Source: a virus | Taxonomy: Duplodnaviria > Heunggongvirae > Uroviricota > Caudoviricetes | Virus record (IMG/VR): IMGVR_UViG_2541047121_000025 | Strand: one strand, 5' to 3' | DNA length: 4,710 nt | Shown here: positions 172-4,454 of the stretch, one piece after another | How the letters are laid out: the number at the start of each line of letters is the position of its first letter | How positions within the stretch are numbered: position 1 is the stretch's first letter | Program-made: the position numbers and the translations under genes | The notes under the pieces: generated by a model | What the model saw: the letters and a program-made list of their open reading frames with translations, nothing else | What the model was told of the DNA's origin: nothing | The model's database searches: none

Positions 172-459
172 TCAGATAGAGAAGGGAAATTGTCGCCGAG
201 AATGTGTCACGCTTACAATCTCAATGCTTGAAGCAGCTACTCTGTACAGGATTATGTAGTTAGGGTGGGTCACGATCTCTCTCAATCCAGAAACCCGTTC
301 GCTTGGTGGATATAAGTACGGATGCTCAGATAGAGGTAATACCGATGTTTCAATGCGTATTTTTAGTCTACGTGCTGCCGGTGGGTTCTCCTTGGCGATG
401 TAAGTTATGATCTGGCGCAAATCATCGCGAGCAGACGGTAGCCATAAAATGGGTAACAT
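172..459 (-). CDS. parE2: Type II toxin, ParE/RelE superfamily (ParE2-like), 95 aa
   Basis: Complete ORF. The core REIVTHPNYIILYRV and the C-terminal IEIVSVTHSRRQ match the ParE/RelE fold pattern as I recall it. Its ATG overlaps the stop of the upstream antitoxin ORF (TAATG at 457-461), typical of translationally coupled toxin-antitoxin pairs. Family assigned from memory, not from a search. Confidence 0.8.
   Translation of the reverse strand: MLPILWLPSARDDLRQIITYIAKENPPAARRLKIRIETSVLPLSEHPYLYPPSERVSGLREIVTHPNYIILYRVAASSIEIVSVTHSRRQFPFSI
239..308. repeat. 70-bp direct repeat, copy B, inside the toxin gene (about codons 51-74)
   Basis: Partner of 1-70. On the minus strand it encodes PPSERVSGLREIVTHPNYIILYRV. 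The single mismatch would change R to G if copy A were read in the same frame. Confidence 0.9.
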
Positions 460-650
460 TACTCGCTCTTGTTAGTTACAGCAATTTGAGCAATAAGATT
501 TTCCATTTCAGCCATTACCTCGTCATGTGGAATTGCGGGGCGAGTGTCTGCAAGGCTTGACGTTACTTTAGTGCGCAACCATTCGTTGTAACTGTTTTCT
601 TGTTCGGTAGTTTCGAATTCTGAAACTATCGGAGAAAGGGCTGTACCCAT
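459..650 (-). CDS. paaA2: Small antitoxin (PaaA2-like), 63 aa, partner of the ParE toxin
   Basis: Complete 63-aa ORF directly upstream of and overlapping the toxin start. Minus-strand Shine-Dalgarno GAGGAG sits about 8 nt before the ATG at 650. The motif ALSPIVSEFETTEQENSYNEWLR matches my recollection of PaaA2; identity with the named protein is unverified. Confidence 0.75.
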   Translation of the reverse strand: MGTALSPIVSEFETTEQENSYNEWLRTKVTSSLADTRPAIPHDEVMAEMENLIAQIAVTNKSE

Positions 651-677: not shown

Positions 678-1079
678 TCACGCCCGGCGGCTTTTTTGTG
701 CCGCCAGCCACCTAGCAATGGTTTCTTCCATTGATTTTTTCTTGTCTTTGATTTCTTGAAGCATTTTTTCTTGGTCTTCCTCAGGAAACGCACTAAAAGC
801 TTGGAGCAGTTCGCGTTGGCGAGGACCAATTTTCATCGTGTCAGGGGTGAAAATTTGCTCACACTCTTCAGGAGGCAATAAAAACCAATGCAATGGATGC
901 CCTGAAACCTCAACCAGTTTATCCAAACTTGAGGCTTTAGGTGTAGCCTTACCGCTGACCCATTGTTGAACAGTTTGTTGTGTCACACCAATTCTACGGG
1001 CAAGCTCAGCCTGGCTCCATCCAGTTTCCTGAAGAAGCTTGCTGATTCTGTACATAGATACTTCTAGGGCGCTCATCAT
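678..1079 (-). CDS. paaR2: HTH (XRE/Cro-CI type) transcriptional regulator, PaaR2-like; probable repressor in the cI position
   Basis: 133-aa ORF with a helix-turn-helix signature ELARRIGVTQQTVQQWVSG near the N-terminus. It is the first gene of the leftward operon and is divergent from the Cro-like gene across a 108-bp operator region. Start is uncertain (ATG at 1079, 1076 or 1055; no clear Shine-Dalgarno, so possibly leaderless). Confidence 0.8.
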   Translation of the reverse strand: MMSALEVSMYRISKLLQETGWSQAELARRIGVTQQTVQQWVSGKATPKASSLDKLVEVSGHPLHWFLLPPEECEQIFTPDTMKIGPRQRELLQAFSAFPEEDQEKMLQEIKDKKKSMEETIARWLAAQKSRRA

Positions 1080-1187: not shown

Positions 1188-1460
1188 ATGCTAGATAGCA
1201 CTCGCGAAAAAATTAGGCAGAAATACACTCAGGCTGAAATAGGTCGTTATATGGGGGTCGCTCAACAGACTGTTTGGCAATGGTTTAGCTTTGGCGTTCC
1301 CCCAAAGCAGGTAATTCCGTTATGCCAACTAATGAAGTGGGAAGTTACCCCGCATGAAATCCGCCCAGATATTTATCCTAACCCAACCGACGGTTTACCT
1401 GTTGGATGTAAGGTTAACACATCAAATGCGCCGGAGTTGATTCATGAAAATCAAGCATGA
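1188..1460 (+). CDS. ydaS: Cro-like DNA-binding protein, YdaS family, 90 aa
   Basis: Strong Shine-Dalgarno AGAGGAGGG at 1175-1183. HTH-like GVAQQTVWQW and a conserved RPDIYP motif typical of YdaS/Cro-like proteins of Rac-type prophages. Divergent from the repressor gene. Confidence 0.8.
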   Translation: MLDSTREKIRQKYTQAEIGRYMGVAQQTVWQWFSFGVPPKQVIPLCQLMKWEVTPHEIRPDIYPNPTDGLPVGCKVNTSNAPELIHENQA

Positions 1461-1869
1461 ACACATCCGCATGGCGATGAATGCCTGGGCGCATCCGGAC
1501 GGCGAAAAAGTACCGGCTGCGAAAATTACCAAAGCGTATTTCGAGCTGGGAATGACGTTCCCGGAACTGTATGACGACAGCCATCCGGAAGCCATGGCTC
1601 GCAATACTCAGAAAATTTTCCGCTGGGTGGAGAAAGACACTCCTGATGCGGTTAAAAAAATTCAGGCGTTGTTACCAGCGATCGAAAAAGCGATGCCGCC
1701 TCCGCTGGTGGCCCGAATGCGCAGCCACAGTTCCGCTTATTTTCGGGAGTTGGTAGAGACGAAGGAACGGCTGGTGAAAGATATTGATGATTTCGTTGCA
1801 TCAGCGATCGTTCTGTTCGATCAGATGAATCGTGGTGGCCCGGCAGGAAACACTCTGGCTGTGCATTAA
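1444..1869 (+). CDS. ydaT: CII-like regulator, YdaT family, 141 aa
   Basis: N-terminus MKIKHEHI and overall size match the YdaT family as I recall it. GGAG lies 9 nt upstream; the start overlaps the end of ydaS by 17 nt. The position after the cro-like gene mirrors cII in lambda. Confidence 0.75.
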   Translation: MKIKHEHIRMAMNAWAHPDGEKVPAAKITKAYFELGMTFPELYDDSHPEAMARNTQKIFRWVEKDTPDAVKKIQALLPAIEKAMPPPLVARMRSHSSAYFRELVETKERLVKDIDDFVASAIVLFDQMNRGGPAGNTLAVH

Positions 1870-1882
1870 TTGGGTAATAAAT

Positions 1883-2392
1883 ATGAGTAATGACAAAAAA
1901 TTGACACTGAGCGTTTACGAAAACAGTCCGCACATCTGGCGTGGCGGTTTATCTGATGTGGAGCTGGCAGAGTGGTTGATACATAAAGCTAATGCGCTGC
2001 TCTGGCGTTTGTCAGCCAGAGAACAGCGCAAGGAAACCAGAATAAAGCTGGCTGATGCAGAAGCGTGTGCCGGGCTTATTGAGGATTATACAAATCTTGG
2101 TATTTCTTCAGCAGAGAGTGATCCCATTCAGCCTCTGAGCAGGGAGTCAATCCAGCACGCTGGTTGTATGGCACATCTTGTAACTGCTCGTCAACATGAG
2201 GTGGGTATTGGATCACTTCCGGCGGGATATTCGCTGATTCCAGAGCTGGTTGAAGCAAGAAAATCAGTTCAGAAAAAGAGAGATGACGCACTTCAATTAT
2301 TGAGAGAGCACTATGGCGCGATACCAGAATGCGAACAGCGTCGATACCCTGAAGGTTATGAATGGATGCAGTCTCTTTTTGAAGTTCGCTAA
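1883..2392 (+). CDS. Hypothetical protein, 169 aa, no recognised domain; accessory gene between the cII-like and replication genes
   Basis: ATG at 1883 is 14 nt after the ydaT stop (the ORF track extends to 1832 but there is no in-frame ATG before 1883). First-codon-position composition is gene-like (G about 34 percent, T about 17 percent), whereas the overlapping minus-strand ORF has the reverse bias. No strong Shine-Dalgarno. Predicted largely helical. Confidence 0.6.
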   Translation: MSNDKKLTLSVYENSPHIWRGGLSDVELAEWLIHKANALLWRLSAREQRKETRIKLADAEACAGLIEDYTNLGISSAESDPIQPLSRESIQHAGCMAHLVTARQHEVGIGSLPAGYSLIPELVEARKSVQKKRDDALQLLREHYGAIPECEQRRYPEGYEWMQSLFEVR

Positions 2393-2609
2393 TCAATATG
2401 TCGAGACGAAGGTATGTTTCGGCGCGCAGCCAGGCTCTGTAATCCGGGAGCATTTCGGGGCTGTTACACCAGCGGTTTGTTGCTGCAACATTTAATACAT
2501 GAGCCTGATAAAGGCTTTTCAAAAAATACATGTCGAACCTCCTCTGGTTCTGTCGATTGGGAACCACAGATTATATCCGGAGGAAGGTTCGGCACCAGAT
2601 GAGGTAGCC

Positions 2610-3701
2610 ATGCGTGATTACGCAAAAGTTTCTCCGCGATTCTGGCTGGGAGAAACGGGGAGAGAACTTAGAAAGGCGGGTGCAGAAGCGCAAGTTGTTG
2701 CTTTTTACCTGATGACATCCCCTCACGCAAATATGCTGGGTTTGTATTACCTGCCAGTTTTATACCTTGCTCATGAAACCGGGCTTGGTCTGGAAGGGGC
2801 TTCAAAGGGGCTTAAAAGGGCTGTTGAAGCTGGTTTTTGTAGCTATGACCATGATGCAGAGATGGTCTGGGTCCATGAAATGGCAGCCTGGCAGGTTGGG
2901 GAAACGTTGAAGCCTGGCGATAACCGTTGTGCAGGTGTCAGGAATGAGTATGCATCATTACCTGAAAACGCTTTTCTGTCAGTGTTTTACGACAGATATA
3001 AAACGGATTTCCATCTGGATGTGAGGCGGAATAATAGCCGAAATTCGGTAAGGGGCTTCGAAGGGGCTTTTAAGGGGCTTCGAAGCCAAGAACAGGAACA
3101 GGAGCAGGAGAAAGAACAGGAACAGGACAAAAACACTATGGTTCATGGCAAAAAAAACACCACGAACCAGGCAGGGGATGTTCAGACCGTCAATCCTGGT
3201 CAGCCAGCAGGCACGACACCGGAAGCCGATTCGGGCGCTGTGCAGCAGGTGATGACCGCAGGGTCGGAGCAATCACACCAACTGCAGCAGCCTGAAGCCG
3301 ATTCCGCCATTCAGCGGGAAGCCGATCGGGTAGTCCCGGAAAGCACCGGGCAGTCTGTGGGACGAGTGGATTATCCGGATGTGTTCGAACAGGTCTGGCG
3401 GGAATACCCGTTGCGTGCTGGGGCAAACCCGAAGAAATCCGCTTTCAGTGCCTGGAAGGCCAGATTGCGCGAGGGGGTGCCACCAGAGACCATGCTGGAT
3501 GGTGTGAGGCGTTACGCGAGATACCTGGCGGCGACCGGGAAAGCGGGAACGGAATTTGTTCAGCGAGCGACGACGTTTTTTGGGCCGGACCGGAATTTTG
3601 AAAACCCCTGGTTGCTCCCGGTAAGCGGCACGAACAACCAGCGTTGTGTGAATCATATTTCTGAACCGGATACCGAAATTCCGCCGGGATTCAGGGGGTG
3701 A
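2610..3701 (+). CDS. Replication initiator/organiser, lambda O-like or YdaU-like, with internal candidate iterons and an EQ-rich linker
   Basis: GAGG Shine-Dalgarno at 2601-2604 before ATG 2610. The N-terminal segment MRDYAKVSPRFWLGETGRELRK...LGLYYLPVLYLAHETG and the C-terminal segment YPDVFEQVWREYPLRAGANPKKSAFSAWKARL look like phage replication-initiator domains (assigned from memory). An in-frame ATG at 2499 is an alternative start but has no Shine-Dalgarno. The gene is followed within 7 nt by a DnaC-like gene. Confidence 0.8.
   Translation: MRDYAKVSPRFWLGETGRELRKAGAEAQVVAFYLMTSPHANMLGLYYLPVLYLAHETGLGLEGASKGLKRAVEAGFCSYDHDAEMVWVHEMAAWQVGETLKPGDNRCAGVRNEYASLPENAFLSVFYDRYKTDFHLDVRRNNSRNSVRGFEGAFKGLRSQEQEQEQEKEQEQDKNTMVHGKKNTTNQAGDVQTVNPGQPAGTTPEADSGAVQQVMTAGSEQSHQLQQPEADSAIQREADRVVPESTGQSVGRVDYPDVFEQVWREYPLRAGANPKKSAFSAWKARLREGVPPETMLDGVRRYARYLAATGKAGTEFVQRATTFFGPDRNFENPWLLPVSGTNNQRCVNHISEPDTEIPPGFRG
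2781..2823. repeat. Iteron-like cluster 1: GGGGCTT-type motif at 11-bp spacing
   Basis: GGGGCTT at 2796 and 2807, GGGCTG at 2818 and GGGCTT at 2781. The three phased copies fall in three different codon phases of the initiator gene. Confidence 0.45.
3050..3087. repeat. Iteron-like cluster 2: AAGGGGCTT x3 at 11-bp spacing with an embedded 12-bp palindrome GGCTTCGAAGCC; candidate replication origin core
   Basis: GGGGCTT at 3052, 3063 and 3074, again in three different codon phases. The palindrome GGCTTCGAAGCC is at 3076-3087. A purine-rich, A-rich tract follows directly (3088-3160). Confidence 0.45.
3090..3131 (+). repeat. Hexanucleotide tandem repeat (GAACAG-like x7) encoding an EQEQEQEKEQEQDK linker
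   Basis: Read directly: gaacag gaacag gagcag gagaaa gaacag gaacag gacaaa, in frame with the initiator gene. Confidence 0.85.
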
Positions 3702-3707
3702 TGTGGC

Positions 3708-4454
3708 ATGAAAAACATTGCGGCAGCCGGGGTTCTTGAACGTATTCGCAGACTTGCACCACAGGCGTCGGTTCCACCGTACCGGACGGTGGAGGAGTGG
3801 CGGGAATGGCAACTTGCTGAAGGACGAAAACGCAGCGAGGAGATTAACCGCCAGAATCACCAGTTGCGGGTGGAAAAAATCCTGAATCGTTCGGGCATCC
3901 AGCCTCTGCACAGCAAATGCTCGTTTGCGAATTATCAGGTGCAGAACGACGGGCAAAAATACGCGCTGAGCCAGGCCAAATCCATAGCTGACGAACTGAT
4001 GACCGGGTGCACGAATTTTGTGTTCAGCGGTAAAACCGGCACCGGGAAAAATCACCTTGCAGCGGCGATGGGTAACCGGCTGATGGCGAAGGGGCGCAGC
4101 GTGATTATCGTCACCGTGTCTGATGTCATGAGCGTGTTGCATGACAGCTACGACAACGGCAAATCCGGGGAAAAATTTTTACAGGAGCTTTGCAGTGTTG
4201 ATTTGCTGGTCCTGGATGAAATAGGCGTTCAGCGGGAGACGAAAAACGAGCAGGTGGTATTACACCAGATAATTGATCGCCGGACAGCATCACTGTGCAG
4301 TGTCGGGATGTTAACAAACCTGAATCATGCCGCAATGAGTACACTTCTTGGTGAGAGGATTATGGACCGCATGACCATGAACGGTGGTCGATGGGTGACG
4401 TTTAACTGGGATAGCTGGCGTCCAAATGTCAGCAATATGAGGGTTGTGAAGTAA
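3708..4454 (+). CDS. DnaC-like helicase loader (AAA+, IstB/DnaC family; YdaV-like replication protein), 248 aa
   Basis: Walker A GKTGTGKNHLAAAMG at about 4030-4075 and Walker B LLVLDEIG at about 4204-4227. A G-rich Shine-Dalgarno AGGGGG lies upstream of ATG 3708. It directly follows the initiator gene, as the P/DnaC-type gene does in lambdoid replication modules. Confidence 0.9.
   Translation: MKNIAAAGVLERIRRLAPQASVPPYRTVEEWREWQLAEGRKRSEEINRQNHQLRVEKILNRSGIQPLHSKCSFANYQVQNDGQKYALSQAKSIADELMTGCTNFVFSGKTGTGKNHLAAAMGNRLMAKGRSVIIVTVSDVMSVLHDSYDNGKSGEKFLQELCSVDLLVLDEIGVQRETKNEQVVLHQIIDRRTASLCSVGMLTNLNHAAMSTLLGERIMDRMTMNGGRWVTFNWDSWRPNVSNMRVVK

Follow-up and report, generated by a model that had tools for sequence, protein, structure and literature searches.

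Comparative sequence evidence for two antisense-overlapping protein genes and a shared leader hairpin in an accessory cassette of a Rac-like prophage of Escherichia coli O157:H7

Introduction

In phage lambda, the interval between cII and O holds oop, a 77-nucleotide (nt) non-coding leftward antisense RNA that overlaps the 3' end of cII. Here, a related arrangement was analyzed in a 4,710-nt stretch of Caudoviricetes DNA (IMG/VR virus record IMGVR_UViG_2541047121_000025; this whole stretch is referred to as the window), which matches Escherichia coli O157:H7 chromosomes at 100% identity and is the early region of a Rac-like lambdoid prophage of that organism. The subject is an inserted cassette in which a plus-strand gene of 169 amino acids (aa) and a minus-strand gene of the ECs1072 family (151 aa) are predicted to overlap tail to tail, next to a conserved hairpin that ends in CCA. 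As with oop, a leftward antisense unit occupies the lambdoid slot between a cII-type gene and the replication genes; however, the leftward unit at this locus appears to be a 151-aa protein gene, its overlapped partner is an extra gene and not cII, and there is no sequence similarity to oop.

Several other described systems share part of this architecture. In the type I toxin-antitoxin pair SymE/SymR and related cases of cis-antisense control of translation initiation, as in the cassette, a protein gene of ~100-150 aa has a structured RNA encoded exactly across from its ribosome-binding site and start codon. The cassette differs in three ways: no promoter dedicated to the RNA was detected, an operon transcript is the probable source of the RNA, and a second overlapping protein gene is present. 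The C4 RNA of phages P1 and P7 is cut by RNase P from a longer early transcript and blocks a ribosome-binding site. The cassette hairpin, known from sequence, resembles C4 as a candidate phage regulatory RNA with a terminal stem followed by CCA, but the target of C4 lies downstream on its own strand, whereas the gene opposed here lies on the opposite strand, and no Rfam match to C4 was obtained at E <=10.

Antisense overlapping genes are also known from enterohaemorrhagic E. coli, where nog1, laoB, asa and pop are young orphans inside older host genes. These are likewise protein-coding open reading frames (ORFs) opposite another gene, in the same strain group; in contrast, the pair described here consists of two phage genes placed tail to tail, kept across genera to ~33-40% identity, in an arrangement that recurs in unrelated families. 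Prophage morons are independently expressed accessory genes within phage operons. The cassette is similar to a moron in that it is a discrete insertion, not found in Rac, in which a fixed slot takes variable cargo and which has its own translation signals, but it runs counter to the operon, overlaps a partner gene that shares the operon's direction, and carries an antisense hairpin common to other cargo families. Neither NF033230 nor phrog_8304, the database families of the two proteins, notes that one DNA segment codes for both, each on its own strand. Both proteins belong to families catalogued as of unknown function, and no prior description of the overlap, or of the shared plus-sense hairpin and CCA, was found.

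Organization of the inserted cassette

The predicted elements of the cassette are as follows (positions count from the first letter of the window; SD, Shine-Dalgarno sequence).

1870-2598: cassette inserted relative to Rac, from the stop of the cII-like gene to just past the hairpin and its CCA
1883-2392, plus strand: 169-aa gene, phrog_8304 (ATG 1883, stop 2390-2392)
2531-2076, minus strand: 151-aa ECs1072-family gene, NF033230, convergent with the 169-aa gene
2076-2392, both strands: tail-to-tail overlap, read in both directions (317 nt)
2543-2538 (SD) and 2531-2529 (ATG), minus strand: translation start of the minus gene, AGGAGG-TTCGAC-ATG
2531-2597, plus-sense RNA: conserved irregular hairpin followed by unpaired CCA (2595-2597)
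2570-2575, minus strand: perfect TATAAT within the upper part of the hairpin

In the Rac prophage of E. coli K-12, ydaU begins 12 nt after ydaT and the cassette is absent. This spacing identifies 1870-2598 as an insertion relative to Rac and agrees with a preliminary description of the window, made from the letters alone, in which the cII-like gene of Rac-type operons was said to be followed directly by the replication initiator. The same description placed a 169-aa ORF at 1883-2392, where it is indeed present, and behind it a non-coding gap of 217 bp. On the plus strand no gene is called at 2393-2609, the 217 nt up to the replication-gene ATG at 2610; the gap is nevertheless not non-coding, as 2393-2531 lies in the 151-aa minus-strand gene. 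The minus-strand AGGAGG at 2543-2538, noted earlier as a ribosome-binding site 6 nt before an ATG at 2531-2529, was confirmed and opens that gene. Furthermore, the slot had been proposed to be a variable accessory one, which holds: nothing occupies it in K-12 Rac, and other prophages carry unrelated cargo there behind the same leader. The idea of a regulatory RNA in the gap was right in kind and wrong in place, the conserved structure being located at 2531-2597.

Two smaller elements of the gap were re-examined. An 11-bp palindrome, GTTGCTGCAAC, exists, but at 2479-2489 instead of 2477-2487, and the small hairpin described at 2501-2517 corresponds to a 4-bp stem, AGCC/GGCT, at 2502-2516. Both were rejected as functional elements and are regarded as incidental, since they fall within the coding sequence of the minus gene and neither is conserved beyond the E. 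coli lineage. A start of the initiator gene at 2499, raised earlier as a possible objection, was also rejected: phrog_1701 aligns from residue 1 of the 2610 start, the RefSeq start is identical, and homologs as well as profiles begin at 2610.

The minus-strand ECs1072-family gene

The minus ORF matched the NCBIfam model NF033230 with 105.7 bits (E 2e-30, profile positions 3-141 of 142), the curated whole-protein cut-off of the model being 70 bits. In RefSeq, the Prokaryotic Genome Annotation Pipeline (PGAP) annotates 2531-2076 as 'ECs1072 family phage-associated protein' and leaves the plus ORF unannotated. The first 46 residues of the minus protein are encoded by bases 2393-2531 of the supposed gap, which includes the most conserved motif of the protein, PDYRAWLRAETYLRLD (encoded at ~2400-2447). 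Across lineages the ORF measures 151-159 aa, and homologs were found down to ~33% identity; an exhaustive hidden Markov model search of 1.84 billion representative proteins yielded only 23 clusters for the family. The non-overlapped codons 1-46 (2394-2531) had a ratio of nonsynonymous to synonymous differences per site (pN/pS) of 0.09 and no stops. An AlphaFold2 (AF2) model built from only 8 sequences gave a confident, full-length all-alpha fold, with a predicted local distance difference test score (pLDDT) of 89.5 and a predicted template modelling score (pTM) of 0.86.

The start of the minus gene, GGAGGTTCGAC-ATG, is found in almost every lineage and before every cargo family described below, with GTG or GGTGG as rare variants. 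The perfect TATAAT on the minus strand at 2570-2575 may be the -10 element of a minus-gene promoter; in other lineages the hexamer is degenerate (TATATT, TATATC, GATAAT, GTTATC, GCTAGC). Literature searches on ECs1072, on antisense at ydaT/ydaU and on the hairpin arms returned one microarray table entry and otherwise irrelevant matches. The entry lists ECs1072 among genes with changed signal across growth transitions in strain Sakai (PMC2241611), which lends weak support to expression of ECs1072 in the lysogen.

The plus-strand 169-aa gene

In the E. coli lineage the plus ORF starts 13 nt past the stop of the YdaT/cII-like gene. It has no NF033230 match, and its protein aligned with phrog_8304, a family of unknown function, over the entire length (E 4e-120, residues 1-169 on profile 1-169). 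The protein carries the N-terminal motif TLxVxxxSPxIWxGGLxDxELAxWL. Full-length homologs of both ORFs were recovered to ~50% identity in a search of 5.8 billion proteins, and a profile search returned plus-protein homologs at 31-35% identity, one of them from Serratia. The non-overlapped codons 1-64 (1883-2074, 192 nt) showed a pN/pS of 0.10 and no stops, and Salmonella-type copies have a strong plus-gene SD, CAGGAGGATAT-ATG. Judged on these comparisons, the 169-aa ORF looks like a real gene.

For each of the two proteins, the most conserved motif is located in the part that is not overlapped by the other. In these non-overlapped parts, the remaining frames gave pN/pS values near or above 1 (1.0-44 over plus codons 1-64) or contained stops. 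The exception was the codon-aligned mirror frame, for which pN/pS was also low (0.15-0.33) but which carries stops. In a Salmonella assembly (locus L003, 3537-3941), a called ORF of 134 aa on the minus-type strand was observed to overlap the N-terminal part of the plus-type gene; it may be either a third gene or a calling error.

Constraint in both frames of the overlap

Within the overlap, plus codon position 1 lies opposite minus position 1, plus position 2 opposite minus position 3, and plus position 3 opposite minus position 2. The shared segment takes up the 3' two-thirds of the minus gene and the 3' part of the plus gene. In nearly all lineages both ORFs are uninterrupted and share 260-392 nt. 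In a recoding test, one gene was recoded synonymously and the other frame was scored for staying open, lineage by lineage. The plus frame survived 0.3-28% of the recodings per lineage that preserved the minus protein, and the minus frame 0.4-10% of those that preserved the plus protein.

A deep identity test was applied to lineage pairs in which synonymous sites outside the overlap were saturated (pS 0.72-0.92). At this divergence, plus-frame identity in the overlap was 0.35-0.45 compared with a null of 0.17-0.22 (z 6-7), and minus-frame identity was 0.48-0.51 compared with a null of 0.18 (z 8-9.5). The plus-frame motifs YxNLGxS, LSxEAI and GYxLxPEL, all inside the overlap, are likewise kept at deep divergence. 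Codon identity given the same amino acid rose from 0.35 outside the overlap to 0.47-0.67 inside it for the minus gene, and from 0.47 to 0.64-0.74 for the plus gene, and synonymous sites of the minus gene were constrained over 2076-2290. The last 20-30 plus codons were the least constrained, and dual constraint was weakest beneath the variable plus tail, with a codon identity of 0.47 at positions of equal amino acid. Simulated single-frame selection gave an expected omega (dN/dS) of 1.2-2.0 in the unselected frame, with wide intervals, while both observed values were below 1. Comparative analysis of this kind indicates that both ORFs are genes, that each is under purifying selection, and that the overlap is constrained in both frames. 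This dual conservation reaches lineages at ~35% protein identity and spans E. coli, Salmonella, Serratia and metagenome contexts.

A conserved leader hairpin ending in CCA

The similarity shared across phage contexts closes with a conserved block, CATGTCGAACCTCC...GGAGG(A/T)(A)GGTTCGGCACCA, at 2529-2597. It specifies a hairpin of 66 nt plus CCA with ~19 consensus pairs, within the 78 nt left between the minus gene and the replication gene, and in plus sense the hairpin is exactly complementary to the 5' leader of the minus gene with its SD and AUG. In the window, the predicted fold has a free energy of -38.1 kcal/mol in plus sense (z -4.2) and -30.8 kcal/mol in minus sense (z -3.5). The plus-sense RNA was the more stable in all 52 distinct leaders (52/52; mean -31.1 vs -22.2 kcal/mol). 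A strand test on the 10 inner pairs that the search pattern did not fix counted 105 G·U pairs on the plus strand versus 4 on the minus strand, with 93.9% versus 67.1% paired.

Two compensatory changes were present among 17 leaders retrieved via protein homology, a number that none of 500 shuffles reached. The stem is always followed by CCA, in the form ACCA in 16 of these 17 leaders and GCCA in one; the A of ACCA is able to pair with the U of the start-codon complement, and one compensatory C-G occurs there. Taken together, covariation and strand bias indicate that pairing of the hairpin is selected in the plus-sense RNA. A role of the hairpin solely as a structure of the minus mRNA was considered and rejected on the G·U strand bias.

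No meaningful Rfam match, C4 included, was obtained with cmscan for 1800-2750 or 2515-2615 at E <=10, the matches returned being chance ones to snoRNA, microRNA, histone stem-loop and other unrelated models, and ARAGORN detected no tRNA and no tmRNA. Across cargo families, no conserved plus-strand promoter was found ahead of the hairpin, suggesting that the hairpin RNA is probably made as part of the early transcript.

Spread of the cassette and variation of its cargo

Similarity among E. coli, Salmonella, Serratia and metagenome contexts runs from the plus-gene SD to ...GGCACCA, and by this comparison the cassette is a segment of ~730 bases that moves as a unit between phage contexts. The contexts are as follows.

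E. coli: after ydaT
Salmonella element (int / cI-like / Cox ... Ash / RecE): after Cox/cII-like genes
Serratia prophage: directly after cro
Metagenome contigs

In every context the plus gene points in the direction of the early lytic operon. The leader was found in 576 of 5426 complete E. coli genomes, about one in ten, and in at least 100 IMG/VR contigs. The leader joins a minus-strand start codon at one and the same base in 162 of 162 instances, behind which 61 distinct proteins are encoded. Its minus-strand cargo belongs to at least six families unrelated to one another (loci L066-L167, from IMG/VR and E. coli), among them families B (151-155 aa), C (97-99 aa) and D (77-83 aa) and a BssS-family protein. 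A convergent plus partner overlapping by 140-392 nt accompanies the ECs1072 family (family A), families B and C, and an A/B-like gene in L149. For families B and C, both ORFs were open more often than recoding predicted; for L149 the recoding test was uninformative. The frame relation of the overlap is common to A and B and different in C.

A tandem arrangement was observed in L007 (L006 lineage), where an ECs1072-type gene (166-627) without a plus partner is followed by a second leader and a family-B gene (719-1174). The family-B gene (region 719-1415) is overlapped in antisense by a GTG-start ORF behind CAGGAGGA, the N-terminus of which, NNKPVIKVLNFNPDELAAWLLE, resembles the plus-family N-terminus; hhalign gave no confirmation of a relationship between this ORF and the plus family. 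In a separate observation, the minus gene carries a TGG-to-TAG nonsense change at W34 (window 2430-2432) in both L040 and L061, one of these copies being 99% and the other ~84% identical to the window. This may reflect either recurrent inactivation or a segment shared by recombination. Truncated minus-strand cargo genes with an intact plus ORF were also seen in L039, L085, L102 and L087.

Annotation of these pairs is inconsistent. RefSeq keeps one gene per pair: in L067 this is the plus gene, whereas L169 and the window have the minus gene annotated; the sites concerned are 2059-2514 of L067 (minus), 851 to ~1180 of L169 (plus) and 1883-2392 of the window (plus). PHROGs holds the plus ORF and NCBIfam/RefSeq the minus ORF, so that the databases disagree on the coding strand.

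Searches for function

Neither ORF had a Pfam match at E <=0.1, and neither protein matched a defence family in PADLOC-DB at E <=0.1. Pfam, NCBIfam, PHROGs and PADLOC together returned only two families for the pair, both of unknown function. In agreement with the preliminary description, profile searches matched neither protein to a routine early-protein family. Neither protein had a match in 50,697 deposited phage genomes (tblastn) or in PDB sequence searches; Foldseek against viral models returned nothing with E <2, and a scan of GTDB species-representative genomes gave no relative.

Neighbouring genes and other features of the window

The genes surrounding the cassette are as follows.

172-459, minus strand: RelE
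459-650, minus strand: RelB
678-1079, minus strand: cI-like helix-turn-helix (HTH) repressor
1188-1460, plus strand: YdaS/Cro-like gene
1444-1869, plus strand: YdaT/cII-like gene
2610-3701, plus strand: DnaD/DnaT-like replication gene
3708-4454, plus strand: DnaC-like ATPase

Pfam matches among these neighbouring genes were YdaS, YdaT, HTH_3 and IstB_IS21. Inside the replication gene, five copies of RAAGGGGCTT occur at 11-bp spacing (window 2793-2813 and 3049-3080). The window contains 6 matches to this sequence at <=1 mismatch, and 0 of 200 shuffles reached 6. By sequence, the repeats look like origin iterons within the initiator gene, as in lambda O. The replication protein also has a low-complexity Q/E-rich linker, SQEQEQEQEKEQEQDK (window 3060-3135), separating its N- and C-terminal parts, and the two halves match different PHROG families. 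At the left end of the window, a 77-nt direct repeat with 96% identity was found at 1-77 and 239-315; the RelE-family toxin gene (172-459, minus) contains the second copy and is followed downstream by the first, an arrangement that suggests a partial duplication.

Proposed regulation and alternative explanations

The explanation towards which we lean, if only slightly, is that of a self-contained cassette whose two genes would be expressed in alternation through an antisense switch tied to the choice between lysogeny and lysis. The regulatory logic was inferred from which way the genes point, which strand the hairpin favours and where the cassette is placed. The plus gene would be transcribed along with the early operon. 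In a lysogen, where the early promoter is repressed, the minus gene would be expressible, like other prophage accessory genes. Once on, early transcription would run head-on through the minus gene and yield a structured antisense RNA that could mask the minus-gene start. The plus protein would be made as well, and might be a partner of the minus protein or act against it. Furthermore, translation of the plus ORF deep into the antisense gene may shield the early transcript from Rho, such that the downstream replication genes would still be reached.

Several observations weigh against this explanation. The putative antisense role of the hairpin is deduced from where it lies and from its strand bias; the outer stem was fixed by the pattern with which some of the leaders were collected, and the lineages are not fully independent. 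A consensus scan of 1800-2750 detected no full sigma-70 promoter and no terminator on either strand, and thus no promoter for the minus gene. Selection in the overlap appears weak at short range (omega 0.58-0.95 for the plus and 0.33-0.83 for the minus frame), and class-rate estimates within the overlap (0.56-0.92 and 0.44-0.74) are modestly below 1; the class-rate test and short-range dN/dS are too weak to decide alone. Across lineages the plus ORF ranges from 148 to 197 aa, with a C-terminus that varies in length and sequence, and the AF2 model of the plus protein is only moderate (pLDDT 66), with a long helix at residues 25-70 and a tail at 148-169 that scores below 50. The variable C-terminus and low-confidence model suggest that a portion of the plus ORF may have no role beyond that of a translated spacer. 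Finally, neither gene is indispensable, as judged from ORF losses: L006 and L007 have an ECs1072 copy without a plus partner, L045 has a 1-nt frameshift in the plus ORF (intact in its close relative L065), and L039, L040 and L061 carry a broken minus ORF.

Three of the alternatives concern which sequence is coding. RefSeq annotation implies that only the minus ECs1072 gene is real and that the 169-aa plus ORF is a shadow ORF in a permissive antisense frame. Consistent with this are the PGAP annotation of the minus gene only, an AF2 model far better for the minus than for the plus protein, a plus-frame omega near 1 in the overlap in some pairs, the weak plus SD in the E. coli lineage, and the L006 ECs1072 copy that lacks a plus ORF. 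We nevertheless regard the shadow ORF as very improbable. The 192 nt of the plus ORF outside the minus gene, with a pN/pS of 0.10 and no stops, encode the region of the plus protein that is best conserved among homologs as distant as ~32% overall identity, strong plus SDs occur in other lineages, and the plus frame is open in 0.3-28% of recodings with an identity above the null (z 6-7). The converse, in which only the plus gene is real and the minus ORF is spurious, comes near to the preliminary description and to PHROGs, and is hardly credible. Although phrog_8304 contains the plus protein and gene callers picked the plus ORF in many assemblies (P0013, P0014), the minus ORF is matched by the curated NF033230, modelled with a pLDDT of 89.5 and a pTM of 0.86, constrained in its non-overlapped part (pN/pS 0.09) behind an invariant SD-ATG, and open in 0.4-10% of recodings with an identity z of 8-9.5. 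It is possible, if doubtful, that both genes are real but that the function of the plus protein ends at about residue 100-148, the remaining ORF serving only as ribosome cover against Rho. The variable plus C-terminus (148-197 aa), the pLDDT below 50 at 148-169, the minimum of dual constraint under the plus tail (0.47) and a plus-frame omega of ~0.6-1.0 in the overlap would all fit such a spacer, and the partner ORFs of the unrelated families B and C also extend deep into the antisense gene. However, the motifs YxNLGxS, LSxEAI and GYxLxPEL are kept in the overlapped plus frame at deep divergence, and synonymous constraint on the minus gene over 2076-2290 exceeds what an open frame alone would need.

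Two further alternatives concern the hairpin. It could hide the ribosome-binding site of the minus mRNA itself, or it could be a processing or stability site of the early mRNA, for RNase III or RNase P. The minus-sense fold does pair GGAGG with CCUCC (-30.8 kcal/mol, z -3.5), the stem ends in an RCCA-like ACCA as in RNase P substrates, and the hairpin lies between cistrons of a polycistronic early mRNA. Self-masking is opposed by the non-Watson-Crick positions, which pair almost only on the plus strand (105 vs 4), and a processing site by the constant fusion of the hairpin, at the same base, to the minus start codon, whatever the cargo or the downstream plus gene; the two together are thus considered fairly unlikely. 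A type I-like toxin-antitoxin or abortive-infection module, with a toxic minus protein, the hairpin RNA as antitoxin (compare SymR/SymE) and the plus protein as a second antidote, would account for a structured plus-sense RNA exactly opposite the minus-gene SD and AUG, for a very strong SD that could also be sequestered in the minus mRNA, and for independent truncations of minus cargo with the plus ORF intact (L039, L040, L061, L085, L102, L087). Such a module is nonetheless unlikely: searches showed neither a conserved promoter for the RNA nor any sign of a discrete RNA species, some of the cargo behind this leader (for example the BssS-family protein) is unlikely to be toxic, type I toxins are usually much smaller than the 151 aa of the minus protein, and no PADLOC match was obtained.

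A broader form of the antisense-switch explanation can be put forward tentatively, and we would not yet expect it to hold in full. The cassette could represent a widespread, undescribed class of early-operon cassettes in enterobacterial temperate phages. In this class 140-390 bp would code for one protein on each strand, an arrangement preserved over deep divergence and seen again in three or more unrelated protein families, and each cassette would be coupled to a shared, CCA-ended, tRNA-like antisense RNA released from the early transcript. The parts would make up a hard-wired toggle by which a function expressed in the lysogen, for example defence or host modulation, would be silenced at lytic entry and neutralised by the partner encoded antisense to it.

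Significance

Long antisense overlaps of two protein genes are usually dismissed as annotation errors, and the cassette provides comparative evidence for both frames across genera. For annotation, the implication is that one member of each pair is probably missing in hundreds of E. coli genomes. The leader hairpin could mark further accessory or defence cargo in prophage early regions, and the locus is directly testable in a well-studied pathogen. If the proposed logic holds, the phage would tie the expression of accessory genes to the decision between lysogeny and lysis through the geometry of its DNA and a shared antisense RNA.

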